Origin: a virus
Taxonomy: Duplodnaviria > Caudoviricetes
Direction: 5' to 3' (one strand)
Length of the DNA stretch: 56,311 nt
Virus record (IMG/VR): IMGVR_UViG_3300013763_000001
Location: 1-56,311 of that record
Numbering within the stretch: the first letter of the stretch is position 1; every line of letters begins with the position of its first letter. The notes below the pieces were generated by a model, which was given only the letters and a program-made list of their open reading frames with translations, was not told the DNA's origin and ran no database searches. The position numbers were made by a program, and so were the translations under genes. Below are positions 111 to 47,587 of this stretch, in pieces.

Positions 111-449
111 GGATTCGAGGATTGGTGTCGCGGCTTGCGCGTCCCGCCAGGTCTCGAATTTGCATGCTGCTATCGCATCGGCGGTCGCTGTATCACCAGC
201 AGTAAGAAACAGCGACACGACATGGGGCTGCCGCTGCCGGAGCGTGTAAAGGATGAAGTCACGTCTGCCTTGCGCTGTGAGCAGGCGCAGCGCCGCCCAG
301 AGCACATCCACGCTCGCCGCTCGCAGGGCTTTTCCTGCCTCGGCGGTCAACGGCACCCCATCGGGGTACACCGCTGCGACCTTCTCGTAGTCTCTCAGAC
401 AGGGCTGCCATCGCTTGAGTCGAGCGAGTGATAAGACGGGCGCGCTCAT
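1..449 (-). CDS. AWAS-repeat protein, 5' part; continues across the circular junction into 56311..56125
   Basis: Hand-translated, not in the ORF track. ATG at 449 overlaps the TGA of the 446..688 gene (ATGA). Reads MSAPVLSLARLKRWQPCLRDYEK...PILESAWASAWAS and stays open to position 1. Confidence 0.8.
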   Translation of the reverse strand, partial: MSAPVLSLARLKRWQPCLRDYEKVAAVYPDGVPLTAEAGKALRAASVDVLWAALRLLTAQGRRDFILYTLRQRQPHVVSLFLTAGDTATADAIAACKFETWRDAQAATPILESAWASAWASAWASAWASAWASAWASAWDSAWASAWAS

Positions 450-688
450 CTCGCACCGCCGATCCGTCGCGTCGTCTGGTGATGTTCGCGGTAAGACTTC
501 AGCGCGTGTGGCGTGATGCGATAGTGGCGGATGCTTCCGGCGCCAACCGTGAACGCTGGGATTTCACCGGCAAGCACCAGCCGCCGTATCGTGCGCGGCG
601 ACACGCCCAGCTCGGCCGCCGCCTGCCCGGTGGACATTGGGCGGGGCGGGCTGTTGCCTGGTGGTGGATCGTGTGGTACGCTTTGCAT
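446..688 (-). CDS. excisionase-like HTH DNA-binding protein
   Basis: MSTGQAAAELGVSPRTIRRLVLAGEIPAF, typical MerR-like/HTH_17 pattern. Confidence 0.8.
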   Translation of the reverse strand: MQSVPHDPPPGNSPPRPMSTGQAAAELGVSPRTIRRLVLAGEIPAFTVGAGSIRHYRITPHALKSYREHHQTTRRIGGAR

Positions 689-7808: not shown

Positions 7809-7891
7809 TGCTATACTGAAGGGTCAAATTGGAGTGCTCCCGCACTGCGCTAACAGCCGGGAGCCGTCACCGAAGATTGGAGCCTTCGATG
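7809..7891 (+). promoter_or_regulatory. HNH leader motif copy 1 (extended -10 plus two hairpins)
   Basis: TGCTATACT 7809-7817; stem GCTCCCG/CGGGAGC 7836-7864; CGAAG-ATTGGAGC-CTTCG directly before ATG 7889. Confidence 0.75.
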
Positions 7892-8548
7892 CCTGTTCAG
7901 TGTACCTGTCTCTCCTGCGGCGCGTCATTCCCAGTGTTCCCGCATGAAATTCGCCGTGGTCGTGGGCAGTACTGTTCCCGCTCGTGCAAGGCCGAAGGGC
8001 AACGTGGCCCGCGTACCGACCTGATTGAGCGCTTCTGGGCAAAGGTAGATACGTCCGGCGGCCCGGATGCGTGCTGGCCCTGGACAGCTTCACGCCATAG
8101 TTACGGGTACGGTCAAATTGGGCTGCCTGGTGGGGGAATCGTTCGTGCTCACCGTTTGGCCTGGGAAATTGCGAACGGCCCGATACCTGAAGGCAAAGGC
8201 ATCCTCCACTCTTGCGACAACCCACCTTGCTGCAATGCACGCCATTTGCGTCCGGGCACAGACTTGGACAATGCCGCTGACGCCAAAGCGCATGGAAGGC
8301 CACGTGGACGCCGCCGACTGTTGCAAAGAAAGCCGAAAGCACCGCCGAAGATTCCTAATCGGAGCGGTACTCACAACGGACGCGCGAAACTCTCGGAAGC
8401 AGCAGTTCACGACATCATTGCCCACTGCCCCCGCCGAAATGCCGCATACGCCGCCTTTGGGGCAAAATATGGCGTCTCGTTGACCGCAGTCGCATTTGTG
8501 GTGCGCGAGCAGACATGGAAGCATATCCCGCGCACTACAGAAACCTAG
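7889..8548 (+). CDS. free-standing HNH homing endonuclease (antisense insert 1)
   Basis: N-terminal CxxC...YCSRSC finger; RFWAKVD...CWPWT...YGYG...AHRLAW...HSCDNPPCCNARHL...DN; C-terminal 'AKL' HTH-like tail. Confidence 0.92.
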   Translation: MPVQCTCLSCGASFPVFPHEIRRGRGQYCSRSCKAEGQRGPRTDLIERFWAKVDTSGGPDACWPWTASRHSYGYGQIGLPGGGIVRAHRLAWEIANGPIPEGKGILHSCDNPPCCNARHLRPGTDLDNAADAKAHGRPRGRRRLLQRKPKAPPKIPNRSGTHNGRAKLSEAAVHDIIAHCPRRNAAYAAFGAKYGVSLTAVAFVVREQTWKHIPRTTET

Positions 8549-9276
8549 GCAAAAGTGTACTTCACCGAAACATCATTGGCGTAAGTACCCGTACTTTGGT
8601 TCGGGCCGGTGAACAGAGCGATCATAATATTTATGTTATCGGCTGTGGTTGCGGCTGGGGTAGCAGGGAACTGTAACCAGTCGTTATCTCCCTGTAAACC
8701 TTGGAAATTGGTTGCCCAGTTGGCTCCGGCAGTCGGCGTCACGGCGCCGGTCGTACCGTCCGTCACCACCGGTGCATTGGTCGGAGCAGCGGCAGGAGCG
8801 CCGGCAGTGACCACACGGCCGAACATATTGGCCTTGAGGTAGGAGCGTGCGGTAGCGCCGGTGTCGGTGGTGTTCCCACCCAGCAGCGAGTTATCGCCGC
8901 GCGTGACGGCAGCGTGCGCGTTGGTCGGGTAGGCGGTGAGAATGGGTGCGCTAGCGAAGCTGCCGACGGCATCGTAGTTGATGCGCGCCTGGAGGTAACT
9001 CGCGTTGGTGAACGCGGCCGGGGTCGTACTCGTGGTGCCGAGCACACCCAGCGAGGTCGTGTCTGCGCTGAACACGTAGAGGTAGGGCACCGCAGCGGTT
9101 GCGGCCGGCCGTGTCATGTACGGCCAGGATGCTGAGGCGGTGGCACCGGCGGTGTTGACATCCAGGAAGCGCAACTCCTGGCCGGTGCCAGCACCCCAGG
9201 CAGGGACGTTACTCCAAACGGGCGTCGCCTGGGTGCCGGTGTTGGCTTGGATCTGGAGCGTCGAAAAATCGGCCAA
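8545..9276 (-). CDS. putative virion structural protein
   Basis: A/T/G-rich 243 aa ORF with GAAAGG RBS; last ~55 codons unusually A/T-ending. Confidence 0.7.
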   Translation of the reverse strand: MADFSTLQIQANTGTQATPVWSNVPAWGAGTGQELRFLDVNTAGATASASWPYMTRPAATAAVPYLYVFSADTTSLGVLGTTSTTPAAFTNASYLQARINYDAVGSFASAPILTAYPTNAHAAVTRGDNSLLGGNTTDTGATARSYLKANMFGRVVTAGAPAAAPTNAPVVTDGTTGAVTPTAGANWATNFQGLQGDNDWLQFPATPAATTADNINIMIALFTGPNQSTGTYANDVSVKYTFA

Positions 9277-9310
9277 TGGGGTGCCTTTCCGCTATGGTGC
9301 AAGGGGTCAG

Positions 9311-9390
9311 CGCGCGGCTCGAGCGAGCCGCGCGAAACGAGCGAAGGGACGCCGCCTGGTCAGTGCCGAAGGCGACGTGCCAGGTGGTAG
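9311..9390 (-). other. structured intergenic RNA candidate
   Basis: 10-bp perfect stem CGCGCGGCTC/GAGCCGCGCG (9311-9334); second stem with a cUUCGg loop on the minus strand. Confidence 0.45.
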
Positions 9391-9393
9391 CGA

Positions 9394-9903
9394 CTACGGA
9401 AGTTTTCCAGCCGCCGCTTCACCGCCGCTCACCGGGGTGATGTCGATGATCCGGGCGTCGGGGGCGGCAGGCGTGGGGGCGATTTGCAGTGTGACGACGT
9501 GCTGGGTGGGGGGTGCTGGCTGAATGACAACCGGGGCAGGCTTGACGTTGGTGCTGTCGTCTCGGATGGTTTGCGCCATCGCGATTGGCACCGGGAGGCC
9601 GCTCACGGTGCCAGGTGGCGTGGCACTGCCGGTCAACAGGTGATAAATTCCTATTGCACTGGCGCCGGACAACGCACCGGAGCCGACCAACAAGAGCCAA
9701 GAATTGCCGGTGGCCGGCCACGGTCCCCCAATGAGCGTATCGACCGCCATCAACGCCACACCGAGCAAGAGCGCGAGCGCACGAACGAGCGTGTCATGGT
9801 TGGGGGCAGTCGGCTGGACCCACACCTCCAACAGTGGTTTGAATAGAGTTTGGATGAGTACCGCCACGAGTGCGGCGACGGTGCCATCGACGACAAAGTT
9901 CAT
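9394..9903 (-). CDS. holin-like membrane protein
   Basis: Three hydrophobic segments ending GALSGASAIGIY, then a Pro-rich tail; lies downstream of the endolysin. Confidence 0.7.
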   Translation of the reverse strand: MNFVVDGTVAALVAVLIQTLFKPLLEVWVQPTAPNHDTLVRALALLLGVALMAVDTLIGGPWPATGNSWLLLVGSGALSGASAIGIYHLLTGSATPPGTVSGLPVPIAMAQTIRDDSTNVKPAPVVIQPAPPTQHVVTLQIAPTPAAPDARIIDITPVSGGEAAAGKLP

Positions 9904-10526
9904 TGCGCGGGTACTCCTTCTGCTACCTGGGGGACGGCGGCCTGCATGACCGCTGCTTGTGCTTCCGGCGTGCTGGCCGGGGTTGGGATGGCGATGGGAG
10001 GATGAGTAGGTACTGGCTGGAGTTCCGGCTTACAGTGATTGTGTTCCCAGTCCCAGTTGAATTTGTCCAGAGCCTGCTGTACCTCGCCGGGATCATTGGT
10101 GTAGATGAAGATATTGTCCTGGAGTTGTGCGCTGTCGCTCAGGTTATAGCTTCCTGTGGCAAGTGCCGACGTGTCGGACAGCGCCCCGTCAGCGCCGTCG
10201 ATGATCGTGTTCTTAAGGTGGTCTAACTGACCATGTTCGCTACTGCCAATCTTGACCTGGATGCGACCGTTGACAGCGCCAGCATCAACCAGGATTTGAA
10301 CAGCGTGCTTGTCTGCGGGACCGCCGTATTGGCGAACGTCGTTGAACACTCGAACCAGGACGCCTCGATTCGCCGCCGTCACGATATTCGTGACGAACAC
10401 GAGATCGGTCAGGCCGAACATCTCACAATCGAGACTGTGCTGAGCCGTCAGAGGCAGCGCATCAACGACGCTCTTTACGTCGTCACCGGGTGAGTAAAGT
10501 GTGTGCCTGAAGCGGATGACGCTCAC
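9900..10526 (-). CDS. phospholipase D-family (single HKD, Nuc-like) protein
   Basis: AANRGVLVRV.ND; HLKNTIID (HxKxxxxD); TGSYNLS...DN. Confidence 0.85.
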   Translation of the reverse strand: MSVIRFRHTLYSPGDDVKSVVDALPLTAQHSLDCEMFGLTDLVFVTNIVTAANRGVLVRVFNDVRQYGGPADKHAVQILVDAGAVNGRIQVKIGSSEHGQLDHLKNTIIDGADGALSDTSALATGSYNLSDSAQLQDNIFIYTNDPGEVQQALDKFNWDWEHNHCKPELQPVPTHPPIAIPTPASTPEAQAAVMQAAVPQVAEGVPAQ

Positions 10527-10918
10527 TTGATTATCCTAGCGAGTTGTGCCACTTCCGTCACGACATCCTCACCCCTTCCGACGCGCCGCGTGATGCACAT
10601 TTTCTTGGTCGCAGCAAACAACAGTACGAACTCTGTAGAGACGATGGCCGTTAGGTTGCCGTGTGCTGCGCTGAATTCGGCCACGAGATCACCCTGATAC
10701 GTACTATCCAGGTACGGCTCACCAGGCAGTACGGCGGCTGTCGTGGCAAAGAAGTCGGTCCCTGCCGCTGCAATTTCTCGCGTGAGGTAGCACCCGTCGG
10801 TCTCAGTGAGGTCAGGTGGCAAGATCGAGTCTCGGATACGGCGCTGTATAATCGGCAGCCAACTAACGGTCTCAGCCGGAGTCGCCGTCAGCGTTGCGCC
10901 CTGCGGTTGGTCAGTCAC
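10523..10918 (-). CDS. hypothetical protein
   Basis: ORF coupled on both sides within the operon. Confidence 0.55.
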   Translation of the reverse strand: MTDQPQGATLTATPAETVSWLPIIQRRIRDSILPPDLTETDGCYLTREIAAAGTDFFATTAAVLPGEPYLDSTYQGDLVAEFSAAHGNLTAIVSTEFVLLFAATKKMCITRRVGRGEDVVTEVAQLARIIK

Positions 10919-11046
10919 GGTCGCCGTCCGGCCAGTCCGACAATCTCACGGATTGCCCACACCACCAGGTAGATGAACAGAAGCAGTTCGTCGGCATGCA
11001 GGAGCCAGTTCCAATCGAGTGACATTGAGAGTCCCTTTCGTTGCGA

Positions 11047-11628
11047 CTATGCGATGCCGAGTAGTTGCTCCACCCGGCGTCGAGTGTTCGGTGCGAGCAC
11101 CTTCTTGTCCTTGCCTTTGAGATACCAGGCGCGGGCGTCCGACTTCCTGCCTTGAATCGCCCGGCCAGCGCCCCGCCAGTCCGCTACCATCTCCCGGATG
11201 TATCGCTCCGGCATCTCTAGCACCTTGGTCTCGCCGCTGTCCTCTTTCAGAATGTAGAATTGGTAGTGGTGTGGATTCCTGTGGATGTGCAGCAGCCAGG
11301 CCTTGTCGAAGTCCGCTTCCACCCGCTCTTTCGTCCACCGGAAAAAGACGCGCTCCGAGATGTGGTTGCGGATGTCGCCGTGGTAGTTGCTCTCCAGGAG
11401 CGCCCGCGTCAGGTAGCCGCCACGGCTGCCCTTGCCGTCCTTGCCACCGTAGAAGTTGCGGGCATAGGGAATGAATTCACTGGGTCGGAACTTGCTCAGG
11501 TCATGGACGATGCCAGCGAAGGGGATGCCGAGTCGACAACAGGCGATGAAGACGTACCACTTATGCCGAAAGACGTACCAGAGATATCGGAGATTCACGC
11601 CGTCCCCCATCCACAGCCGGCGAAGCAC
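11047..11628 (-). CDS. DUF5662-like HD-type protein
   Basis: HKWYV...HDLSKF.P.E...AWLLH..RNPHH...EMP..YI.EMVADW. Confidence 0.75.
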   Translation of the reverse strand: MLRRLWMGDGVNLRYLWYVFRHKWYVFIACCRLGIPFAGIVHDLSKFRPSEFIPYARNFYGGKDGKGSRGGYLTRALLESNYHGDIRNHISERVFFRWTKERVEADFDKAWLLHIHRNPHHYQFYILKEDSGETKVLEMPERYIREMVADWRGAGRAIQGRKSDARAWYLKGKDKKVLAPNTRRRVEQLLGIA

Positions 11629-11632
11629 CTAT

Positions 11633-13720
11633 TTACCAGCCACACTCCTTGAACACGGCATCACGGTCTTTGGCCTCAATCTGGTAGGTGATGCCATCGC
11701 CACCGTGCCATTCGAGGACTATGCCGTTATCAAGCGGTAGGCGAGCCAGATTGTTGATAGCCCATTCCGGTCGTATCGCCGGCGTCGGGTCCGTCAGCGC
11801 ATCCCGGCCGCTCTTGATCCAGCGGTCTACCATCCGCGCGTAGGCTTTGAACAGCGCGCCATCGGTGAGAGGCTGCACGCCCAGCGCGCTGAATCGCGCT
11901 ACGGCGGCCGCCTTCAACGTATCGTCCACGGTCACTACCTCCTTTGCTCGCTGTACAATCACCAGCCAGCCACCCAGGCTGTTGACGTTCACGTCTGCCG
12001 CGCTCCACAGGTCGTAAGCGCCGGTCCAGGGGTTGGCAAATGTGTAGAGCGGCGCTCGGGGCACCGCCGCCACGAAATGGCCGCCAGTCTTTGTTGCCAC
12101 GTCGCCGTAGCGCAGATAGGCCACCGGCCAGCCGGTAGCGAGCGCATCGGCAATGGCGCCGGCGGGATCCTGCGTCTGCACCTGCAAGCACGGTACGCCC
12201 CGACTGGCAAACCAGGCTTGCATCTGCATCGTTGTGGTGTAGCCCGTCCAGTCCGCATTGCCCGTCTCTTCCAGCTTGACTTGCCGGACGGTTTCATCCA
12301 CCGGCACGAGGCCGAGGTCGCGCGCGATCATGTCTGCCGTCGCGGGGCCGCAGTCGTTCGCGTCGTTATTGTCCGGCTGCGCGAGTTGATTGATGATCGG
12401 CCAGTCAGGCACGGTCCCCTCCTGCATCACCACGTCCTGAAACGCCTGCAACGGGAAGTTCGGCCCAGGGCAGACCCGGCCTACGTCAATCTGGTCATGG
12501 AGGATCAAGGCAAGCGTGCCGTGCCGCGTGACGATGTCCTTCACGAGCGCAAGGCTAGCCGCCAGTTGTGCCGGTGTGATTGGGCTGGTGTTGGTTACGT
12601 CGCGGACATGCTCAATACCAATCGTCCAGAGGTTCGGATTTGGGCCGCCGGCGTAGGCGCTGTTCGCCGTGACGACGCCAGCGTGCCAGGCGCTGTCTGC
12701 CTCCGAGACGGTTTGCGTCACCGTACCGTCGACGTCGACCACGTAATGCGCGCTGACCTGGCTGATCGTATTACTAAACCAGGAGACAGCGCCCGGTCCT
12801 GCCGTGCCGTGCAACACCAGCGCCTTGATTGTGTTGCCTTGCCGACCGGCCCAGAAGTTCGGTGACGGCACCCAGGTTGCCTTGCTATAGTCCGGCATCT
12901 TTACTCCTGCCTGCGCTCGCACATACGCCGCAAGGTCAGCGGCGATCGGCGTAATGTCAAACGCTGCCCAGTCCGGCGTCGGGTTGCTCGCAAAGACGCA
13001 CCGGCACAGGACCGCCGCGTCCGCCTGGTCGCCGGCGTCCAATGCCTGCAACGTCGTCAGGTAGTCGGCAGCGGCCCAGCCGCGCGCCTGCCAGCCACCC
13101 TGGCCGCTCGCCTCCGGCTGCACGTTATCAGCGCCGCTCTCCGTGATGACCACCTGGACGGCGATACCCTGCCGGGCCAGGTCAGCCACGATCAGTCGGT
13201 GCCGTTGCGCCGTATACGGCCACCAGGCCGGTACACGCGGATCTGTGCTGAGGATGCCGGTGTACTCGTCAAGCGCCAGGTCAATGCCGGTGAGACGTAG
13301 CAGCGGGTAGAGCGGTTCAAGTTCCGGGAAGTGTGGGTCATTACCAACTACGGTTATTTGGGTCGGGTTGCCCGTGGGCAGCGCCCCCACTAGGATCGTG
13401 CCGCCGTAGCCGCCGTTCCGCAGGCCGTAATACACTTCCGTCTGCCACACCGGATCAAGCGAGCGCCCGGACTCACAGCAGATTTGCAGGTGCGTGACGG
13501 CGCTGAGGTCGTGTGCGAGCAGGATGTTCGCCGCGTCCGTTGAACCGGCGGCATCGGTGGACGTGTCACGGAAGATGCGTACCGGGATGCCGGCCGACGC
13601 TGCAACGGCCAGGGGAGCGGTGCTATTCACGCTCTTCCAGGCGGACCACTGGCAGGACTGGATCAGCGCGGTATCGTCGCCGGGGCCGGGCAGGGATTGA
13701 CCACAGGACTTGGACGGCAT
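11633..13720 (-). CDS. multidomain endolysin: N-terminal hydrolase-like domain, Amidase_2, and C39-like peptidase
   Basis: Amidase: LVLHGT...SAHYVV...AWHAG...N..TIGIEH...H...CPG. Peptidase: NDCGPA...GHFV..NPW. Confidence 0.85.
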   Translation of the reverse strand: MPSKSCGQSLPGPGDDTALIQSCQWSAWKSVNSTAPLAVAASAGIPVRIFRDTSTDAAGSTDAANILLAHDLSAVTHLQICCESGRSLDPVWQTEVYYGLRNGGYGGTILVGALPTGNPTQITVVGNDPHFPELEPLYPLLRLTGIDLALDEYTGILSTDPRVPAWWPYTAQRHRLIVADLARQGIAVQVVITESGADNVQPEASGQGGWQARGWAAADYLTTLQALDAGDQADAAVLCRCVFASNPTPDWAAFDITPIAADLAAYVRAQAGVKMPDYSKATWVPSPNFWAGRQGNTIKALVLHGTAGPGAVSWFSNTISQVSAHYVVDVDGTVTQTVSEADSAWHAGVVTANSAYAGGPNPNLWTIGIEHVRDVTNTSPITPAQLAASLALVKDIVTRHGTLALILHDQIDVGRVCPGPNFPLQAFQDVVMQEGTVPDWPIINQLAQPDNNDANDCGPATADMIARDLGLVPVDETVRQVKLEETGNADWTGYTTTMQMQAWFASRGVPCLQVQTQDPAGAIADALATGWPVAYLRYGDVATKTGGHFVAAVPRAPLYTFANPWTGAYDLWSAADVNVNSLGGWLVIVQRAKEVVTVDDTLKAAAVARFSALGVQPLTDGALFKAYARMVDRWIKSGRDALTDPTPAIRPEWAINNLARLPLDNGIVLEWHGGDGITYQIEAKDRDAVFKECGW

Positions 13721-13920
13721 CAGGCTTGCCGCTCCGGTACGCCTTCAGCAACACAGAGTTCCCGATACTCCGTTAGCGACTCGTCATAATCCAGCAGCGC
13801 CGCGTCTTCTGTTGCGCCCCATCCGTACGTCAGGGTCACATCGTCACTGACGACGTAGCTTTCGTCATCATCCTGTTCTGTGGTCAATGGATAGGGGCGA
13901 AGAGGAGTCATCGGTCCCAC
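13720..13920 (-). CDS. HicB-like small protein
   Basis: EQDDDESYVV......YGWGATEDAAL.......Y......G..P matches the HicB N-domain pattern. Confidence 0.6.
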   Translation of the reverse strand: MGPMTPLRPYPLTTEQDDDESYVVSDDVTLTYGWGATEDAALLDYDESLTEYRELCVAEGVPERQA

Positions 13921-14029
13921 GGTCCCTTCGGGCGATGCCGGTCCATCACCGCAATCGCCAGCACGGTCAGGCAGATAATGAGCACGCAGAGGACGGCGGC
14001 GATGGCGAGCGAGTAGACGGCGGGAGTGC

Positions 14030-14308
14030 TCACTCCTTCACCCGCGCATCACCGGAAGGCATCGTAGGGCGGATATTCCATTCTGCCATTCGCCCTCTTT
14101 TGTACTGTTCCCGCGCAAACTCCAGCCGCCGGCAGTTGGCCCCCAGACATTCCCGGTTTCGCAGCCCAGCCGCCCGAGCGCCATATCGCAAGCGCAACAG
14201 GCGGGGGATGCTGTGCATGCCTGGGAAGCACAGCATCGTCACCGTGCGACGTTCACCATCGGTGAGCAGTTTCACCAGTTCGGCAAGCTCCGGCATCACC
14301 CGTCCCAC
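14030..14308 (-). CDS. hypothetical protein
   Basis: ORF in the minus-strand operon. Confidence 0.4.
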   Translation of the reverse strand: MGRVMPELAELVKLLTDGERRTVTMLCFPGMHSIPRLLRLRYGARAAGLRNRECLGANCRRLEFAREQYKRGRMAEWNIRPTMPSGDARVKE

Positions 14309-14511
14309 CTCTCAACGTTGAGCACCGTCAGGTAGTCAGGAATAGTCGCCATCGGCGCTGCGTGGCTCCAGTAGTCGCCGCGCAGGAAGTAGTCCGGGAA
14401 GTAGTCCGGCAGGTCGTAGCGATATTTTGTCCAGGTCCCCCGCGACAGGCGGCGGTAGATGCGTAGGCATCCAAACAAGTTGTCTAGACCTTTCAACATA
14501 CACACTCCCAT
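14296..14511 (-). CDS. hypothetical protein
   Basis: ORF in the minus-strand operon; start could be ATG 14499. Confidence 0.5.
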   Translation of the reverse strand: MGVCMLKGLDNLFGCLRIYRRLSRGTWTKYRYDLPDYFPDYFLRGDYWSHAAPMATIPDYLTVLNVERWDG

Positions 14512-14542
14512 CCATAAGCAAGCGTAACCAGGGCAGAAGCGG

Positions 14543-14629
14543 TATAATAAATGGTCACTTAATGGTGGTGACGCCGCGAGCGTGCAAGGCTCCGGCGTCG
14601 TGGCTCAACGTAGCTTGGAGTACGTCATG
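14543..14629 (+). promoter_or_regulatory. HNH leader motif copy 2
   Basis: TATAAT 14543-14548; stem GACGCCG-C-GAGC-loop-GCTC-CGGCGTC 14570-14599; ACGTA-GCTTGGAG-TACGT-C-ATG 14627. Confidence 0.75.
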
Positions 14630-15301
14630 CAATCGCATTCTACCCTGCCACCACTCCCTCTGTACTGTCGATTCTGTGGAAGCACATTCCGGTATCATCG
14701 AGAGATATTCGCTAGCCTTATATATTGCTGCAGAGCATGCAAGGATTCTGATGCTCCGTATATGGCGCTCCGCCGATTTTGGCGTCACGTTGATCGGAGC
14801 AATCCCAATGGTTGCTGGATATGGAAAGGTGCGCTCAGAAGTAAAGGATACGGACACTGCACATTCGGCGACAGGACTATGGGTGCTCATAAAGTAGCGT
14901 ACCTAACGATGATTGGCCCTGTACCCAAGGGACTTTTCGTCATGCATACTTGCGACATTCCCCGCTGCTGCAATCCCGCACATCTTCGGCTGGGTACCTG
15001 TGCGGACAATAATGCAGACATGCGAGAAAAGAAACGTCACCGGTTCGGCGATCGTCACCCCATGCGTACCAATCCAGAATGTCGCGCTACAGGGGAAAGG
15101 AGCGGAATGCGTAAACATCCTGAGTTGGTACGGCGGGGCGAGGATGCAGCCGGAGCGAAATTGGAAGCTGCCGATATTGCTGTGATTAGATCACGATATG
15201 CCGCCGGAGAGATGCAAAAGGTACTCGCCGCACAGTTCAACATATCCTCAGCCCACGTCTCTGGAATCGTCAACCGCAAGTTCTGGAAACACCTACCATA
15301 G
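14627..15301 (+). CDS. free-standing HNH homing endonuclease (antisense insert 2)
   Basis: CRFCG...YCCRAC; RFWRHVD...CWIWKG...GYG...AHKVAY...HTCDIPRCCNPAHL.LGT..DN; lower GC than the flanks. Confidence 0.92.
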   Translation: MQSHSTLPPLPLYCRFCGSTFRYHREIFASLIYCCRACKDSDAPYMALRRFWRHVDRSNPNGCWIWKGALRSKGYGHCTFGDRTMGAHKVAYLTMIGPVPKGLFVMHTCDIPRCCNPAHLRLGTCADNNADMREKKRHRFGDRHPMRTNPECRATGERSGMRKHPELVRRGEDAAGAKLEAADIAVIRSRYAAGEMQKVLAAQFNISSAHVSGIVNRKFWKHLP

Positions 15302-15421
15302 AAGTTGGCACCCGCATGCCGCACAGAGATGCACATTGACCCTGCGCGGCGACATCACGGTCCAGTACGTATTGCTCATTTCCCGGCGGCAGCAGGAGCA
15401 GCGTGCGGTGTAGCCGGTCAC
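15293..15421 (-). CDS. small CxxC-CxxC zinc-binding peptide (42 aa)
   Basis: Hand-translated: GTG overlapping the upstream TGA; MTGYTARCSCCRREMSNTYWTVMSPRRVNVHLCAACGCQLLW. Confidence 0.5.
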   Translation of the reverse strand: MTGYTARCSCCRREMSNTYWTVMSPRRVNVHLCAACGCQLLW

Positions 15422-15963
15422 TGCACGTCCAGCCTTGCCAGCGCCGGTATCGGGATGCCGTGACGGTTCAGTTCACGCCGAAGTACGATGTTTGCGGCAT
15501 CAAGGTTATCGACGCGCGCTTTCAGTACATCGTGGCGTGTCGTCACATTCGCAAGTTGATCTCTCAGGCTGTCATTTTCCACGTGCAGCGCCGTGTTTGC
15601 ACGCCGCAACGTATCCAGGTCGGTGCTGAGGTGGTTCAGTTCCTCACGCAGCACGCGCTGATCCGCCGTCAAGGCAGTCACTTCAGTTCGCAGGTTGCTG
15701 ACAATCCATTGCCAGTCGGCACTGATCTGGGCGCGGTCGACTTCGCTCGCGTCAATCTTTGCTGTTGCCGTCGCCTCGTCCAGCAGTCGCTTCCGCTCAA
15801 TGGCGTCGGTTTGCGCCTTCTTGCGAGCGGTGTACGCTGCCAGTCGGGGCCCGGCGATGATCGTCCCCACCACGGTGATAATCGCTGCAATCACCGGGTA
15901 GGCCGTGCCGATATTTTCCATACGGAGCCTACTTCCCGACAGGCGGCGCAACAACAACATCAT
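15418..15963 (-). CDS. membrane-anchored coiled-coil protein (lysis-associated?)
   Basis: One TM segment (VIAAIITVVGTIIAG) then long heptad repeats; start at 15963 or 15921. Confidence 0.7.
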   Translation of the reverse strand: MMLLLRRLSGSRLRMENIGTAYPVIAAIITVVGTIIAGPRLAAYTARKKAQTDAIERKRLLDEATATAKIDASEVDRAQISADWQWIVSNLRTEVTALTADQRVLREELNHLSTDLDTLRRANTALHVENDSLRDQLANVTTRHDVLKARVDNLDAANIVLRRELNRHGIPIPALARLDVQ

Positions 15964-16372
15964 TTGCGCCCTCACGGGCCAGGAGCCAGATCGCAGCGGC
16001 AAAGCAGCACAGGGACTGCGCCCATAACACGATGATGGCCGGCGCGACAATCGCCGTCGCCGCGCCGATGTACACCCACCAGGCGACTGCTACCGCGCGC
16101 GCGCTGTGATGCACCCAGGGGCGGCCGCTCATCCAGCCGAGCGGCGTCACCAGCATGGCAAATGTTGCCGGCCATATCCAGACGCCTTTGTACGTCAGCA
16201 CGATATCGACACTGGTGTGCGCGTACATGCCGTCCGGGGTAAATGCCAGGAACACCACCCAGCAGAGGACGAAGGCATAGACGAGCGCGTCCACCGGGCC
16301 GGTGTTGGCGCGCAGGAGCACACGGAGCGCACGGCTGAGGACAGCGCGCAAGAGCGTTCGTGGTTTGATCAC
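15929..16372 (-). CDS. multi-pass membrane protein
   Basis: About four hydrophobic segments; AGGAGG RBS. Confidence 0.7.
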   Translation of the reverse strand: MIKPRTLLRAVLSRALRVLLRANTGPVDALVYAFVLCWVVFLAFTPDGMYAHTSVDIVLTYKGVWIWPATFAMLVTPLGWMSGRPWVHHSARAVAVAWWVYIGAATAIVAPAIIVLWAQSLCCFAAAIWLLAREGANDVVVAPPVGK

Positions 16373-16614
16373 GTTGTACCTCCTGTCACGACGGTGCTTC
16401 CCGCCGGCAACGTCACCAGCGTCGTCCCGGCGTCACCGACGACTGCGACAGCGACCGATGGCTCCGGCGGTGTGGTGGCGTGCACGGCGAACATCTCGTG
16501 CGTCGCGTCCAGTTGGATCGCGGCATGCGTCGGCGCCGTGGCGCTGCCTTCGGCCGCATCAATTGCGCGGTCGAGGAGCGAGCTGGTAGGTTGGAAAAGA
16601 AGCAATGTGAGCAT
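16369..16614 (-). CDS. hypothetical protein
   Basis: Coupled ORF (TGATG). Confidence 0.45.
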   Translation of the reverse strand: MLTLLLFQPTSSLLDRAIDAAEGSATAPTHAAIQLDATHEMFAVHATTPPEPSVAVAVVGDAGTTLVTLPAGSTVVTGGTT

Positions 16615-16934
16615 CAGAGGGTGATAACATCCGTCCCTGAAGGCAACACGATAATGTCGCCGGTGGTCAGCCCCTCAGCGGCAGCGATGCTTTGCAAAAT
16701 AGCCTGCTGAATCGCCAGCGCGCTGGTGGTGTTCGGCTCCGTCACCGTGACGCTACCTGTCCCCTGTTGGAAGGGTGGCGCGGTCGGGGCGTCGGAGAAG
16801 CTCGGCAGCGTCCCATGCATCGTCACCCAGCAGACGCGGTAACTCGCCGTCTGCACGATGTTGGAGCCGACGAACGATGGGGATGGAACGGCGGTGATGC
16901 GACAACCATTTATCGGACCAACGCTACGTGGCAT
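16614..16934 (-). CDS. hypothetical protein (possible tail-fibre chaperone)
   Basis: GGAG RBS; follows the fibre-like gene. Confidence 0.6.
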   Translation of the reverse strand: MPRSVGPINGCRITAVPSPSFVGSNIVQTASYRVCWVTMHGTLPSFSDAPTAPPFQQGTGSVTVTEPNTTSALAIQQAILQSIAAAEGLTTGDIIVLPSGTDVITL

Positions 16935-16944
16935 TGCTTACTCC

Positions 16945-17829
16945 CTAACTTGCGTACCAGGTCTCTTGTGACGTGCCCGTCACGTCCCCTGCCCCAAGGC
17001 CGTTTCCCTTGGTGACAACAGCAATGGCCGCCGTGTCTACCTCGGTGGACGTGCCGTTGAACTCCAGCGGCGCAAGGCCGCTGATGCTCAGCGTGGCGGA
17101 CCAGGTTTGGGCACTCGCACCAGTCTTGATGACCGTCGCCTCGACGCGATAGGCCAGGCCGCTGGCGGTACCGGTGTAGATCGCCATCTGCGTGCTGCCG
17201 AAATACGCCACGATCGTCTTGCTGTTGGCATTGGCAGCCAGAGTGCCACAGGACTTGATGCGGATCGCCTTCCCCGCCACATCCAACCCATTTGCCGGGA
17301 AGGCGTAGGTGAACAGGGTCGTCAGCACGCCGGCGGTGTTGCCGACCGGCGCGTACTGGATGTTGGCGACACCAATGCCGGAACAGAACTGTCCTGCACC
17401 ACCCATGATGATGTTCAGTTGCCCGTTTGCATTTAGGTTCGCGGCACTGATATTGCCACCGCTCAAGACGTTTCCGTACTTGTCTATAGTGAAGCTACTG
17501 ACCGTAAAGCCGCCGCCCGCCCCGTTCTGCACCAGCGTCAGCGCCGGGTTGGCGTCGTTGGCGGTGAGCCGGCGTATGACGCCTTGCCAGGAGCCGTTCA
17601 TGTACGCCCACAACTGGCCGGTGGTGCTGTCCAACACCAGCGGCGCATACCCGGTTGCCGCTGTCGGCACGCCGGTCGGTACGCCGGCCATCACCGGGAT
17701 GTACACGTAGCCGGTCGTGGCTGACGTTGCCGGCGACGGCGCACCCAGCGCCTTGCCGGGCAGCGTGGCCGCTGTGGATGGGTCCTCAGTGTGCTGCACA
17801 CCGTCTACCGGGCTGATATAGAGCGCCAT
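16945..17829 (-). CDS. tail fibre/spike-like protein
   Basis: G/T/A-rich; GYVYIP..AGVPTGVP...G.APLVLDST..QLWAY.NGSW fibre-type segment. Confidence 0.7.
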   Translation of the reverse strand: MALYISPVDGVQHTEDPSTAATLPGKALGAPSPATSATTGYVYIPVMAGVPTGVPTAATGYAPLVLDSTTGQLWAYMNGSWQGVIRRLTANDANPALTLVQNGAGGGFTVSSFTIDKYGNVLSGGNISAANLNANGQLNIIMGGAGQFCSGIGVANIQYAPVGNTAGVLTTLFTYAFPANGLDVAGKAIRIKSCGTLAANANSKTIVAYFGSTQMAIYTGTASGLAYRVEATVIKTGASAQTWSATLSISGLAPLEFNGTSTEVDTAAIAVVTKGNGLGAGDVTGTSQETWYAS

Positions 17830-17837
17830 CGTCTCCC

Positions 17838-19010
17838 CTACAGGATGGTTTCGAGCAGCGCGGCGATGTCCGCGTGGCCGGCGTTCGTCGGATGGTTCGC
17901 CTTGGTGATGTCGATCAGGCCGTTTGTAGACGGGTACATCCCCCACTTCTGGGAAAAATCCGCCACCCCGCAGCCGCGCAAGGCCGCCACGTCATAGACG
18001 GCCTTGCAGTACAGCGACCATGCCTGCCCTGTTGCCTCATTGCCGCCAGCGTCGCTGCTCACACCATCGCCCAGCGAATGGATCACGAACAGCACGCTGC
18101 ACTGCCCCTGGCCGCGCTGGAATGCCCGTACCATCCGGTCTAGCCCTGCCTGGTACTGCTCCAGCGGCTTGCCGTTGCCGACATCATTGAGGCCGAAGCT
18201 GATGATGGCGAGTGATGGCTGCGTGGGGAAGCCAAAGCCGGTTGGCGTGCCGGAGGCCGTCCATCCCTGCCAGAGGATGATCCGGTCGGCAGGCTGCCCG
18301 GCAGTGCCGACGTGATTCGCTACCTGATCGCCACCGACCGCGCAGTTGGCGAATGCCAGCCCGGGCCCGCCGCTCGTCTTGATCGTCTGCACGCCCTGCA
18401 CGCACAGGACGTTGCCGGCAGACTGCGCGGTGAAATGGATGGTATGGGCAGTGTTGGCAAGGCCGGCCAGCCCTGCCGTCGTCAGTTTGAGTTGCCCGCT
18501 GCCGGCGCAGGTAATGGTCTGGGCAGCACCGCCGTCAACGTTGTAACTGAAGGTGCCGATCGCATAGTCATAGTAGATAATGGCGAGCGTCGTACAGGCA
18601 TAGGGTGTGGTGAAGGTCAGCAGGTCACTCACGGTTGCCGCCGCCGGCCACGTCGATGTCCAGGTCAGCCCCCAGAGCTGCCACAGTTGATTGGCCGCCG
18701 CGCCGGAGTTAATCACCCACGGCGCCGTTCCGGCCCAGGTGTTTGTGTAGCCGAAAAAGGCGCAGTTTGTCGTCGGCCAATAGTCGGCGTAGAGGCCGTA
18801 GCCACGCGCCAGGATGTTCGCGCGCAACAGCCCCCACCAGCCGAGGTTGAGATAGTCGGTCGCAACCATGCCCTCGGTGAAAGAGTCTCCGAGCGCGGTC
18901 ATCCAGTAGGTGCTGCTGCCACTCGCCGCTTTGGCGTTGCGCCAGGCGGTGTCCCAGCTGCCAGGCAGCGACAGGTTGGCGTAGCTCGGCGGCGGTGTGA
19001 AGAGTGGCAT
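17838..19010 (-). CDS. SGNH/GDSL hydrolase-domain virion protein
   Basis: LGDSFTEG; N.AVGG; ISFGLND; HPTNAGH. Confidence 0.85.
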   Translation of the reverse strand: MPLFTPPPSYANLSLPGSWDTAWRNAKAASGSSTYWMTALGDSFTEGMVATDYLNLGWWGLLRANILARGYGLYADYWPTTNCAFFGYTNTWAGTAPWVINSGAAANQLWQLWGLTWTSTWPAAATVSDLLTFTTPYACTTLAIIYYDYAIGTFSYNVDGGAAQTITCAGSGQLKLTTAGLAGLANTAHTIHFTAQSAGNVLCVQGVQTIKTSGGPGLAFANCAVGGDQVANHVGTAGQPADRIILWQGWTASGTPTGFGFPTQPSLAIISFGLNDVGNGKPLEQYQAGLDRMVRAFQRGQGQCSVLFVIHSLGDGVSSDAGGNEATGQAWSLYCKAVYDVAALRGCGVADFSQKWGMYPSTNGLIDITKANHPTNAGHADIAALLETIL

Positions 19011-19747
19011 TATTGGAACGCCTTCAGGACGATGCCGCCAGCAGTTGCTCCGTCCACGCTGCTCGCTAGCGTCGAGTAGAGATGCACGTCGGTCCCCTCC
19101 CACCAGAATTCCAGGTAACTGCCCACGCCACCGCTCGCAGGCGGCAGGCAGAGACTGCCCGGTGATGCCGGCGTGCCAAACTCAACGTAGAGCGCAACCG
19201 TGGTGTTGTTCTGGAGGATGAACCGGTGCGCAGTGGACGCGAATCGGTAGAGCGTGTCGGCGCTGGCGGTCAGCGCCGCCGGAAAGCCCACGCCTGCTCC
19301 GACAGCAACAGAGCCAAGGGAGGACGGCACCCGATTATTGATGAAAGTCAGCGCATTACCGGCAGTGTCCGTCGGCGCGGTCTTCAGGGTCTTGTTAGCA
19401 TCGACGCGCAGTCGGTCCCAGGACGTGCCGTTGAAACCGAACAGGTAGCCGAGGGTGATGAGACCTTGCGCGGTCGCACCCTGACCGTCAGTACTCGCCT
19501 GTGTGCCGTTGACGGCGCCGCCGCCCGCCCAGATTGCGGTTTTGAGGTTGCCGCTCCCATCCACGTTGAGCGGGTTCCCGGCGGCATCCAGTGGCATCGT
19601 CGCCAAGGCTGCTGTCGCCGCGCTGCCGGGCCCGTTCGTCGCGCCGTTGCGGCCTTGCCACAGCGCCCAGCGGCCGTTCGCGGTATCCCACAATCCCAGG
19701 TACGGGTTATTTGCCCCGTCCTGCGGCAGGTTAACGCTCAGCGCCAT
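19010..19747 (-). CDS. putative tail/baseplate-associated protein
   Basis: G/A/T-rich; FNGTSWDRLR segment; position in the tail module. Confidence 0.65.
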   Translation of the reverse strand: MALSVNLPQDGANNPYLGLWDTANGRWALWQGRNGATNGPGSAATAALATMPLDAAGNPLNVDGSGNLKTAIWAGGGAVNGTQASTDGQGATAQGLITLGYLFGFNGTSWDRLRVDANKTLKTAPTDTAGNALTFINNRVPSSLGSVAVGAGVGFPAALTASADTLYRFASTAHRFILQNNTTVALYVEFGTPASPGSLCLPPASGGVGSYLEFWWEGTDVHLYSTLASSVDGATAGGIVLKAFQ

Positions 19748-19970
19748 GTGTCGCATCCTCCGGGACAGACGGCGCTACCGTCTGATCGTGCGCTTCCTTT
19801 GCTGCCAGCAGCGCATCGTGCGTACTGGATCGCAAGATCGCCTGTGGTTCTGGTCGCCCGAAGATGATCATCTCAGCACCGGCCAGGACGGGGGCCAGTC
19901 CCTCACTCGCCAGCGCCAGCACGTTGGCTGCCGTCCAGTCGCGGCGCAAGAGCACGTAGGTCTCGGTCAT
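19731..19970 (-). CDS. hypothetical protein
   Basis: ATGA-coupled ORF. Confidence 0.5.
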   Translation of the reverse strand: MTETYVLLRRDWTAANVLALASEGLAPVLAGAEMIIFGRPEPQAILRSSTHDALLAAKEAHDQTVAPSVPEDATHGAER

Positions 19971-20188
19971 GCGGTCCTCCGGCAGCGTAGCCCGGGCACG
20001 TCGGAATGGTGCGGGAACGCCACTTTAGACGCGAACCTGCCGGGTAGCGGTGTGTCCAGCAACACCGTCACGTGTGCCGCCGACACCTCGGTAATCTTCC
20101 CTGTCGCGGTGCGCTCGCCGTCGTGCTCCACCCAGCCGCAATGCACAGCGTCGCCCACGGCAGGATCATCGTCAGTGACCGGATGCAT
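19967..20188 (-). CDS. hypothetical protein
   Basis: AAGGAG RBS before ATG 20188. Confidence 0.5.
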   Translation of the reverse strand: MHPVTDDDPAVGDAVHCGWVEHDGERTATGKITEVSAAHVTVLLDTPLPGRFASKVAFPHHSDVPGLRCRRTA

Positions 20189-20190
20189 GA

Positions 20191-20673
20191 CTAGGCTCCT
20201 TGCGCCATAATCGAAAAGTTCGTCATCGTCTGTGTGCCCGGATCGGTGTTCTCGAAAATGAACGTCGTCGCTGTGGTGCTGATAGCGGTCGGCTGCCACG
20301 TTGCGTTCGGATGGATTGCGCCGCCGTTCATGCAGCTCCCAGAGACGGCCGGGAGACTGGCGAAGGACCGCGCAAACGTCAGGGTGTAGCTCACCGTGCC
20401 CGAGCTGGCGACACTCACGCTGCCTTGCGCCGGGTACACCTCGGCGTGGGTCGCCGCTGCCGTGCCTTCAACGCACCGGTTGCCATTGGCCGTCACATTG
20501 CCGGTTGCCGCCATGACGCCGGCCACGCCGCCAGTCAGCGTGGTTGCGCCGGTCACGGCCAGCGTCCCGGCCAGCGCTACCGGGTTGTTGACCGCAGCGG
20601 TAAGTGTGTTCACAATTTGATTAACGTCAGCGGCCAGGATTCCCCCGCCGCTCGCTACCTGATAAAGCGCCAT
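20191..20673 (-). CDS. short tail-fibre-like protein (C-terminal H-type-lectin-like fold)
   Basis: ILAADVNQI N-terminus; G.V.V...TLTFARSFASLPAV...STTATTF. Confidence 0.65.
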   Translation of the reverse strand: MALYQVASGGGILAADVNQIVNTLTAAVNNPVALAGTLAVTGATTLTGGVAGVMAATGNVTANGNRCVEGTAAATHAEVYPAQGSVSVASSGTVSYTLTFARSFASLPAVSGSCMNGGAIHPNATWQPTAISTTATTFIFENTDPGTQTMTNFSIMAQGA

Positions 20674-20699
20674 GCGGTCCCTCTCAGCCGATAGTCAGA

Positions 20700-20787
20700 T
20701 GGTAAAATGAAGGCAGTTAATTGGTGTGGACCGGCGACGCTACCAACGTCCCGGTCCCGGCACAAACGTGATTGGAGCACGCTCATG
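20700..20787 (+). promoter_or_regulatory. HNH leader motif copy 3
   Basis: TGGTAAAAT 20700-20708; stem GGACCGG-C-GACG-loop-CGTC-CCGGTCC 20728-20757; CGTG-ATTGGAG-CACG-CTC-ATG 20785. Confidence 0.75.
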
Positions 20788-21438
20788 CGGAGCAATTCTA
20801 CCCCGTCGCCCAGAATGCGCCCATCGTTCGAGCGCATCTCGTGTACCTGCAATGCTTGCAACAAAGTATTTACGATTCACCCATCAGCAGCACGGAGAGG
20901 AGGAGGCGTGTACTGTTCCAGCAATTGCTATCACACAGGCCGCTATGAACATACCGCCGCTGAACGCTTCTGGGCACGTATTGACAAGACAGGAGAATGT
21001 TGGCTGTGGACGGGTAAAGCGCACTTGTCGTTTGGTTATGGACATCTGAGTTTTCACGGACGTACTACGTCCTCCCATCGAGTCGCTTGGGAACTAACAT
21101 ATGGTCCTATCCCAGACGGAATGACGGTAATGCATTCCGTCTGTGACAATCCGCCGTGTTGTCGTCCAGACCATCTGAAGTTAGGTACGAATGCCGATAA
21201 CCTTAAGGAAATGTGGGCAAAGGGGAGAGGGCATACCCCAATGATGGACGGTAGCTTCATTCGGCTCATTGGCTCTCAACACCCTCTATCGAAACTCACT
21301 GAAAGTGATGTCTGCGAAATGCGCCGCCTCTATGATACTAAGTTATGTACGGTCGCTGAGTTGGCGCGTCGGTACCCCATCTCGTACATGGTTGCAAAGA
21401 GAATCGTGTTTCGTCTATCTTGGAAGCATCTTCCGTGA
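20785..21438 (+). CDS. free-standing HNH homing endonuclease (antisense insert 3)
   Basis: CNACN...YCSSNC; RFWARID...CWLWTG...GYG...SHRVAW...CDNPPCCRPDHL.LGT..DN; SKLT tail. Confidence 0.92.
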   Translation: MRSNSTPSPRMRPSFERISCTCNACNKVFTIHPSAARRGGGVYCSSNCYHTGRYEHTAAERFWARIDKTGECWLWTGKAHLSFGYGHLSFHGRTTSSHRVAWELTYGPIPDGMTVMHSVCDNPPCCRPDHLKLGTNADNLKEMWAKGRGHTPMMDGSFIRLIGSQHPLSKLTESDVCEMRRLYDTKLCTVAELARRYPISYMVAKRIVFRLSWKHLP

Positions 21439-27192: not shown

Positions 27193-27262
27193 CGCTACTC
27201 CTTCCCGACGCTGTGTGCTAGGCTGTCGCCATCAAATGATCAAACGTTGATTGGAGAGCGTC

Positions 27263-27676
27263 ATGCGCCCGCCGCGATGGTTCGTGGTATTTATTCTTGG
27301 TGTTGCTGGTCTTTTGCTGGCCGTCGTGTTCAGTTCGCATCCTAGCCAGGATGTCCCGCAAGGGGCAGCGCCAACCAAAGCGCCGCCTGCTTACTCGCTA
27401 GCAGTAATCCAGAACGGCGGCTACGTCGGCCCTGACGATCTGCTCGTGCGCCAGTTTCAGCGCCAACTTGACCTTCTCAGCAGTAAATGCAACGACGCTG
27501 AAAGCACCATCGCGGATCAAGTCGTGACAACACACGACATCCTCAAGAAGCGTGGCATCGTTGAAAGCTACCTGGCTGTTCTCACTGACGTTGATCGCGT
27601 CGTGCCCGCTGGTACGTCCATGACGTGCGCTCAGGACTTCGCAGCCTGGGCGACTATCCGTATCGACACACCCTAG
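27263..27676 (+). CDS. antisense moron: membrane-anchored/exported protein
   Basis: N-terminal TM (WFVVFILGVAGLLLAVVF); own -10 TGCTAGGCT at about 27216-27224; CTAG tail-to-tail overlap. Confidence 0.75.
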   Translation: MRPPRWFVVFILGVAGLLLAVVFSSHPSQDVPQGAAPTKAPPAYSLAVIQNGGYVGPDDLLVRQFQRQLDLLSSKCNDAESTIADQVVTTHDILKKRGIVESYLAVLTDVDRVVPAGTSMTCAQDFAAWATIRIDTP

Positions 27677-47087: not shown

Positions 47088-47171
47088 TCTCGCCCTCTCA
47101 TGAGACACCACAATGGTATCATTATAGCACCATAGTGGCGAAAGGGCATTGAGATGGTGTATCCTGGCGGA

Positions 47172-47377: not shown

Positions 47378-47587
47378 TCATCGTTGCCCCACCCCTCCCT
47401 TCTCTCCCCACGCCCGCAGGATCAACCACCGCAGGCGATCGTACGCTTGCAGCCGTTCCAGCCCCCGCACGGCGATGTCGCGGCTGTGCGCCACCGGCTG
47501 CCCCCGCCGGTATTCCGCCCGCCCGTAGGTGTCCACGGCGGCCAGGATGGCGGCGGCGGTCGGCACCTCAATGGGCAGGGTGGTCAT
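47378..47587 (-). CDS. hypothetical protein
   Basis: ATGA-coupled on both sides. Confidence 0.5.
   Translation of the reverse strand: MTTLPIEVPTAAAILAAVDTYGRAEYRRGQPVAHSRDIAVRGLERLQAYDRLRWLILRAWGEKGGVGQR

Follow-up and report, generated by a model that had tools for sequence, protein, structure and literature searches.

The window analysed here, that is, the whole stretch of 56,311 bp, belongs to a siphovirus-like phage whose record is estimated to be 85% complete. Its minus strand carries terminase, portal, tape-measure, tail and endolysin genes, and three open reading frames (ORFs) of the plus strand, located at 7889–8548 (copy 1), 14627–15301 (copy 2) and 20785–21438 (copy 3), encode homing endonucleases with the HNH_3 domain (PF13392), each preceded by the two-hairpin unit that is the subject of this work. 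The domain was found with E values from 4e-13 to 1.4e-11 and scores of 44.3–49.2 bits, against a cut-off of 24.8, and the three proteins, which were aligned with each other as paralogues, share 35–38% pairwise identity. The three genes are oriented antisense to the late genes of the minus strand, so that the cassettes lie backwards inside the late operon, and the next minus-strand ORF directly adjoins each cassette. No megablast match to 9 kb of the window was obtained among cultured phages. The sequencing runs listed as containing this DNA are four DNA runs from a single soil study, with no RNA run among them. An N-terminal coding extension of the HNH genes was considered and rejected; their frames are open upstream, but the protein alignment begins at the ATG.

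The order of elements upstream of each ORF is the same: a −10 box, a spacer of about 20 nucleotides (nt), hairpin 1, a short linker, hairpin 2 and the ATG. On the plus strand the −10 box, hereafter P_in, reads TATACT in copy 1 (7812–7817, aligned with the TATAAT of relatives), TATAAT in copy 2 (14543–14548) and TAAAAT in copy 3 (20703–20708). Hairpin 1 (7836–7864, 14570–14599 and 20728–20757, respectively) consists in the three copies of a 7-bp outer stem, a bulged C, a 4-bp inner stem and a loop of 6–7 nt. The 21 outer-stem pairs are Watson-Crick without exception, and the inner stem of copy 1 contains a single A.C mismatch on the plus strand, which is G.U on the minus strand. In hairpin 2 the sequence TTGGAG occupies the loop just before the ATG at 7889, 14627 or 20785. 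The original prediction, which described these leaders from the letters of the window, had given all their coordinates and sequences correctly, and its count of 21 Watson-Crick outer pairs was reproduced. An extra AATTGGNGT box is also present between the sense start and the hairpin in all three copies. Both hairpins were reproduced by RNAfold on the sense strand, where the folds of the three window copies were no better than those of shuffled sequences (z from −0.8 to −1.7).

The bare shape of such a hairpin is common in this GC-rich window, since a loose hairpin search returned 74 sites on the plus strand and 75 on the minus strand. A covariance model (R1) built from the three window leaders and two relatives from IMG/VR found three sites only in the window at E ≤ 10, and a later model (R2), run with the filters off, recovered the three copies with E < 1e-14 plus one weak partial site at 672–742. 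The covariance models therefore recover essentially only three sites in the window, which indicates that the complete unit is specific. The weak site (plus strand; 22 bits with R2, seen with the filters off only) is an 11-bp perfect hairpin without the bulge, and it has a TACGCT box on the strand opposite an 80-amino-acid excisionase-like gene (446–688, minus strand) that also starts with ATGC. This site, which was not counted as a copy, may represent a simpler form related to the present design, or else be an ordinary terminator.

In the covariance-model search of IMG/VR the unit recurred at the 5' end of nuclease genes, and R1 detected it ahead of related HNH genes on further viral contigs. 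Two weak R1 hits (L038 and L062), unconfirmed by R2 at E ≤ 0.01, were never included in the counts. A DNA pattern was also scanned over IMG/VR; it fixes the inner stem and the GGCAC linker and leaves six of the seven outer-stem pairs unspecified on both sides, only the innermost G-C being constrained. The full unit was present in 23 of the 80 pattern loci listed, with 5–7 of the 7 outer-stem positions paired, and the remaining 57 loci showed at most four Watson-Crick outer pairs and lacked the promoter and start context. Further copies that had not been selected by the pattern were located in the flanks of the fetched loci. When R2 was applied to IMG/VR loci chosen only for the presence of an HNH relative, the unit was detected in 8 of 80 (9 hits), and the same model detected it in 5 of 80 loci with an HNH relative from genomes and metagenome-assembled genomes (MAGs). 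The genome and MAG contigs bearing the unit are labelled Thermomicrobiales, Chloroflexia, Pyrinomonadaceae and Sumerlaeota (Chloroflexota, Acidobacteriota and Sumerlaeota). Like the window with its three copies, other contigs contain more than one unit: four, four (in 15.9 kb) and two.

Comparison of one leader with cultured phages by blastn led to three groups. Pseudanabaena phage Pan2 has the full unit (ON968453, 6454–6538). Three phages of Propionibacterium freudenreichii (Anatole, B3 and E1) carry it before an HNH ORF at 505–1260 that is annotated only from position 772. In Anatole (NC_041890, unit at 439–522), whose HNH gene adjoins the terminase gene, the open frame, the conserved unit and an N-terminal zinc-finger-like motif indicate a GTG start at 505, which gives a protein of 251 amino acids. 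The match in Acetobacter phage phiAP1 (LC644972, 1501–1527) comprises the hairpin only and is near-identical to the consensus hairpin 1. It lies between two co-oriented small genes, without the promoter pair and without a nuclease gene, and may be a remnant or an independent terminator.

Among the 38 ORFs downstream of the unit, 31 contain HNH_3, four contain the HNH domain PF01844, one is of the GIY-YIG type and one belongs to MTES_1575/DUF559; a LAGLIDADG-like gene, assigned from a motif read by eye, lies behind one unit. The unit is therefore found upstream of four or five nuclease families, and no protein domain is common to all the downstream ORFs. That the element travels with this HNH family had been proposed originally, and it holds for 31 of the 38 ORFs, but the association is not HNH-specific, as the GIY-YIG, MTES_1575/DUF559 and LAGLIDADG-like genes show. 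The presence of several nuclease families downstream also argues against an operator or a cofactor for one particular protein, as had been suggested at first. Together with the wide host spread, it fits a dependence on universal host machinery and not on one protein. No matches were found in Rfam 15 at the gathering threshold for either strand of the whole window, and at E ≤ 5 the five leader-bearing loci gave only two unrelated weak matches elsewhere, so the impression that this was no named motif proved right. The element is confirmed to be real and conserved, and its absence from Rfam is likewise confirmed.

The strand on which the structure is maintained was analysed in 38 units aligned with MAFFT (alignment A10), an alignment that was not fitted to any structure. 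Eighteen named pairs were counted, 11 of hairpin 1 and the 7 basal ones of hairpin 2; 19 of the 38 units stem from the pattern scan, in which the inner stem and the GGCAC linker are given. Opposite the nuclease gene, 94.4% of the cells pair, compared with 74.5% in shuffles, none of which (0/500) reached the observed value. Both sides have changed in 14 of the 18 pairs; in slid controls, 34–51% of the cells pair. Hence, the covariation claimed from the three window leaders is upheld in the larger alignment. On the sense strand 83.0% of the same cells would pair. A total of 85 cells are G.U in the antisense RNA and would be A.C mismatches in the sense RNA, and only 7 show the reverse. The asymmetry persists when a near-invariant U.G pair is left out (51 versus 7) and in the 19 units not found through the pattern (44 versus 5). 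In addition, the partner of the A of the AUG pairs on the antisense strand only in 34 of the 38 units. RNAalifold, run on A10, independently recovers the 11 pairs of hairpin 1.

Fold energies point in the same direction. The antisense fold is the more stable one in 36/36 units for hairpin 2, in 27/36 for hairpin 1 and in 34/36 for the whole unit, whereas random segments of the window divide about 50:50 and GGAG..ATG contexts lean to the sense strand. For the three window copies the antisense z values were −3.3, −3.45 and −4.1, against −1.6, −1.4 and −1.7 for the sense strand. The bulged G is conserved in 37 of the 38 units, and the hairpin loop starts with YU in 36. U-turn loops speed antisense pairing in other systems, which is a lead only for the interpretation of this loop start.

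The first 20 nt of the downstream ORFs are conserved at the nucleotide and not at the protein level. Relative to the coding sequence (CDS), C is present at +4 in 35/36 genes and A at +11 in 33/36, and T at +15 and A at +16 are each present in 34/36 before the register of two genes was corrected. Read on the antisense strand, these positions spell TAnnnT at +16 to +11 in 34/36 units, often preceded by TGG or GGG. Once the register is corrected, all 36 genes (36/36) have T as the last base of codon 5, which encodes 10 different residues, whereas the frequency of T at third positions elsewhere in these genes is 0.20 (p about 1e-25). These counts leave out L220, in which no ORF of at least 90 codons was found, and L018 and L085, whose start codon is uncertain; no search model and no pattern had included the conserved positions named above. 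Seven bases on from the hexamer stands the G opposite +4, which is also the first paired base of the antisense form of hairpin 2 (hereafter P2'), and this first pair (18-61) is standard in 35/38 units. Comparison of the genes thus shows nucleotide-level constraint on a putative −10 box of the antisense strand, and with fairly high confidence this strand has a promoter of its own (P_out). On this comparative basis, a candidate promoter on the opposite strand, as in cis-antisense regulators of the IS10/IS200 type, is present in the unit. A pairing of the conserved bases +13 to +18 with the linker or with the −10 region was considered and discarded, as no covariation was seen by eye.

The wobble asymmetry, the stability of the folds and the opposite-strand −10 box in codons 4–6 indicate, with high confidence, that the selected structure lies on the strand opposite the nuclease gene. 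The sense-strand RNA that had been envisaged at the outset is disfavoured by the same three observations (G.U in 85 against 7 cells, folds in 34/36 units, and the box in codons 4–6). A structured antisense transcript is also a feature of the cis-antisense regulators mentioned above, and the conserved folds predict one here. The resemblance of the 7-nt loops to anticodon loops, and of the bulged hairpin to a coat-protein operator, was one of shape only and was removed by the strand result. Three further candidates were also rejected: a mini-ORF behind the first TTGGAG-like box upstream (no suitably spaced start codon), a pairing of the 5' TGGNGT box with the linker (inconsistent among the copies) and a sigma-54 promoter based on the TGGCAC of the linker (wrong spacing to the next element, judged by eye).

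In the window, the P_out −10 box is predicted within codons 4–6 on the minus strand, as TACACT in copy 1 (7899–7904) and as TAGAAT in copies 2 (14637–14642) and 3 (20795–20800), 87–94 bp away from the P_in box. The corresponding antisense starts would be at 7892, 14630 and 20788. The predicted 5' stem-loop P2' spans 7868–7891 in copy 1, where it is complementary to the Shine-Dalgarno sequence (SD) and the AUG, carries CUCC in its loop and has a 9-bp helix on the minus strand against only 5 bp on the plus strand. In copy 2 it spans 14603–14630, and in copy 3 (20760–20788) it folds into an uninterrupted 11-bp helix from the predicted start. On the minus strand, hairpin 1 becomes a terminator-like stem-loop with a bulged G (P1'), an assignment that is based on covariation and fold in the three copies. 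The first 8 nt after this hairpin contain on average 4.1 U on the antisense side and 0.97 on the sense side, and the U-rich stretch of the relatives coincides with the purine-rich start of the sense transcript. The relatives have 3–7 U in these positions, except L041 with 2, and the window copies, whose antisense tails read ACNCCAAU, have 1–2. Since the window copies lack the U-rich tail, their P_out transcripts may run on into the next late gene.

The reading that we consider best, and that is probable although by no means secure, is that each unit is a convergent promoter pair with a short, terminated cis-antisense repressor RNA over the 5' untranslated region (UTR) of the nuclease gene. Each cassette would have two convergent promoters about 90 bp apart, each with a −10 box and no clear −35 box. 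P_in, which is TATAAT-like, would make the nuclease mRNA with a 5' UTR of about 75–85 nt. P_out, the TAnnnT box in codons 4–6 of the opposite strand, would start an RNA opposite the C that follows the ATG. This RNA is predicted to measure about 65–80 nt in most relatives, and its 5' stem-loop would begin at the first base and show an anti-SD CUCC in the loop. A 3-nt spacer, usually CAC, would follow, then the GC-rich, G-bulged, terminator-like hairpin 1 and, in most relatives, a U-rich tail. Such an RNA would match the nuclease mRNA without a single mismatch over its entire 5' UTR, its SD and its AUG, so that the sense and antisense RNAs would be almost co-extensive over the 5' UTR; complementarity to SD and start codon is given by construction for any cis-antisense RNA. 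By analogy with IS10 and IS200, it could hold down the translation of the nuclease or the stability of its mRNA, either by blocking ribosome access or by promoting cleavage of the duplex, and colliding convergent polymerases may add interference. We infer that the RNA is produced, that it ends at the hairpin and that it represses. The antisense strand has retained its pairing, whereas the sense strand has lost it repeatedly, which suggests selection for a stable antisense RNA together with a weakly folded, translatable mRNA.

A more far-reaching version of this reading, which we regard as speculative and rather unlikely, takes the unit as a portable 'governor cartridge', a control module of about 110 bp plus the first six codons that crosses phyla and can be fused to any nuclease ORF. 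The G.U pairs confined to the antisense strand would then make the antisense RNA a stable lock and leave the mRNA weakly folded and translatable. The nuclease would be made only briefly, for instance before the P_out RNA builds up or when late-operon transcription overruns P_out. The hairpin would also serve as an insulator and thereby allow a backward cassette in essential operons, and the tail-less window copies, whose antisense sequence after the hairpin, ACNCCAAU, includes a further anti-SD-like motif, might in addition act in trans on the UUGGAG sites of their sister genes.

Several observations weigh against the antisense-repressor reading. No recognisable −35 box was found at either promoter. 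A promoter and terminator scanner, which requires a −35 box and five or more T among 8 positions, called no promoter and no terminator in the window between 7700 and 8000, and in the relative L197 it called the sense promoter only. P2' was not predicted by RNAalifold on the MAFFT alignment; it is a structure named by the analyst, and four of its seven basal pairs are nearly invariant. The 19 sequences from the pattern search came with the inner stem and linker already fixed, and the sequences are related, so that the shuffle controls overstate the significance. The tails are moderately U-rich, with at least 5 U in the first 8 nt in 17/38 units, so that of the features of an intrinsic terminator the GC-rich hairpin is present, the tail meets this level in 17/38 and the scanner calls are zero. 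Termination at hairpin 1 is doubtful in the window copies. The conserved bulged G and the YU loop start are not explained by a plain terminator. Finally, according to a GC-position heuristic, 27 of the 36 callable units have, next to the promoter side and mostly only a few bases away, a gene with the same direction as the antisense RNA. At least one 'same' orientation call, that of window copy 3, is probably wrong, since the nearest ORF (20191–20673) is on the minus strand.

The common antisense orientation of the neighbouring gene also fits another explanation, in which P_out would mainly transcribe the phage gene beyond the cassette and thereby repair the polarity of a backward insertion; the hairpins would then be a stabilising 5' leader of the phage mRNA and any antisense effect on the nuclease a by-product. 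The location of the tail-less window copies inside the late operon also agrees with this explanation, and invading endonuclease genes can bring promoters that affect their neighbours, as described in the available part of PMC2988022. On the other hand, such transcripts would be terminated in most relatives by the U-rich tail that adjoins an 11-bp GC-rich hairpin, the unit is also found where the nuclease gene is co-oriented with its neighbours (Anatole, Pan2 and 9/36 of the heuristic calls), and neither the complementarity to SD and AUG nor a helix beginning at the first base is needed for a mere promoter. We consider this outward promoter a serious rival, though unlikely on balance as the explanation of the unit, and it is compatible with the antisense repressor. 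A structured 5' UTR that functions in the sense mRNA, be it to stabilise it, to damp its translation or as an autoregulatory operator, seems quite unlikely to us. The sense RNA can indeed form both hairpins, the GCA of the linker can pair with the UGC of AUGC and place the start codon in a short helix, and control of translation by hairpins is known for T4 endonuclease genes (PMC2988022, in the part available). Nevertheless, the cells that are not Watson-Crick are nearly all A.C on this strand (85 versus 7), its folds are weaker in 34/36 units and no better than shuffles, the partner of the A of the AUG pairs only on the other strand in 34/38, the constraint on codons 4–6 is left unexplained, and the downstream ORFs have no domain in common. 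The scheme cited originally, sequestration of the ribosome-binding site (RBS) as in I-TevI, does not agree with the SD lying in a loop instead of a stem, nor with a promoter upstream of both hairpins.

A plain intrinsic terminator or insulator for backward phage transcripts, with no dedicated promoter, would account for a GC-rich hairpin and a U-rich tail on the strand of the surrounding genes and for the hairpin-only copy between genes of Acetobacter phage phiAP1. It is very unlikely in our estimation, because it explains neither the TAnnnT box and the constraint on synonymous sites nor the second helix from the predicted start and the conservation of bulge and loop, and because an efficient terminator inside the late operon would be harmful. 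Had only the three window copies been available, with outer stems that are exclusively Watson-Crick, a palindrome recognised as double- or single-stranded DNA (a protein operator or a cruciform) would agree with them as well. Over the 38 units, strand-specific G.U pairs are common, which a duplex or a cruciform would not tolerate asymmetrically, and the stem sequences vary freely while pairing is kept; hence, this explanation is extremely unlikely.

Other genes of the window share some features with the three cassettes. A fourth HNH_3 paralogue (46461–47063, in the stretch 46461–47111 of the minus strand) is co-oriented with the phage genes and has a similar promoter, TGCTATAAT, as well as an ATTGTGGTGT box; it lacks hairpin 1 and the antisense −10 box and is not matched by R2. 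At 33290–33937 (plus strand) there is a nuclease-like gene of another family, with PHROG matches to a Lar-like protein, endonuclease VII and HNH, which is preceded by a TATACT box of its own and by a short leader that lacks the two-hairpin unit. The ORF at 27220–27676 (plus strand; 137 amino acids) probably encodes a membrane protein and has no family match. Its ribosome site, GATTGGAG, lies in a small hairpin as in the HNH leaders and it starts with ATGC, with neither hairpin 1 nor an antisense −10 box. Elsewhere in the window, a TnpB-like gene (38108–39268, plus strand; domains OrfB_IS605, Cas12f1-like TNB and HTH_OrfB_IS605) is inserted between the portal and head genes and has a TATACT box just before its start. 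A cluster of overlapping inverted repeats at 49014–49140, with the core GGATTC/GAATCC-CGGCAAC, is located near a DnaC-like helicase loader gene (47584–48738) and may be an origin or an operator array.

The restraint of endonuclease genes has mostly been studied in T4-like phages, where it involves promoter choice, autorepression and RBS hairpins. The present finding points to a different, self-contained solution that is apparently widespread in GC-rich phages of soil and freshwater. The predicted antisense-RNA module is better conserved than the proteins that accompany it, and it occurs with several nuclease families and in several copies per genome. A promoter written into the codons would explain the conserved N-terminus M-x-x-polar-x-T. 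The unit is a candidate new RNA family for Rfam, and it corrects at least one gene start in a cultured phage.

Among known systems, the T4-type endonuclease genes are also phage endonuclease genes with a promoter of their own and RNA structure near the RBS. According to the available part of PMC2988022, they are controlled by promoter choice, by autorepression and by hairpins that bury the SD on read-through transcripts, and in I-TevI, I-TevII, I-TevIII, segB and mobE a late promoter within the hairpin frees the RBS. In the window, by contrast, each of the three copies has GGAG in the hairpin 2 loop and a single sense −10 box, which precedes the two hairpins, and it is the other strand that is under selection. 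An antisense RNA at a homing endonuclease gene has been seen experimentally in cyanophage S-PM2, where CfrI, of about 225 nt and of unknown function, is antisense to the endonuclease gene and extends over this gene and psbA (PMC2984593, in the part available). The RNA predicted here is shorter (about 65–80 nt), covers only the 5' UTR and the start, has a two-hairpin fold and would occur in many unrelated phages. Among the papers listed by full-text searches of the open-access literature, none pointed, by its title or the opening of its abstract, to a dedicated antisense module of HNH or other free-standing endonuclease genes. As in intrinsic terminators, a GC-rich stem-loop is followed by a U-rich stretch on the antisense strand of most relatives, but the imperfect tails, the lack of scanner calls, the bulged G (37/38), the YU loop (36/38) and the tail-less window copies set the unit apart from them.

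HEARO, the omega RNA of IscB, is a structured RNA encoded next to an HNH-domain gene. The present unit differs from it in that it has no Rfam match, in its far smaller size, in its position on the opposite strand and in its additional association with GIY-YIG and other nucleases, and for the latter reasons (size, strand and range of nucleases) a guide or cofactor role is unlikely. The closest likeness is to the antisense RNAs of insertion sequences. In IS10, the cis-antisense RNA-OUT lies opposite the 5' end of the transposase mRNA (RNA-IN). In IS200, the antisense art200 is combined with secondary structure of the transposase mRNA, according to the available part of PMC4513863. As in these elements, the 5' UTR and start of a mobile-element gene would be covered by a small, highly structured RNA from an outward promoter located within or close to the beginning of that gene. 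Unlike them, the unit described here has no sequence or Rfam match, its target is a homing endonuclease instead of a transposase, and its predicted promoter is embedded in codons 4–6 and is common to several nuclease families. We therefore class the element as a new family of an established kind, in which a mobile-element gene is under cis-antisense control, and not as a new principle.

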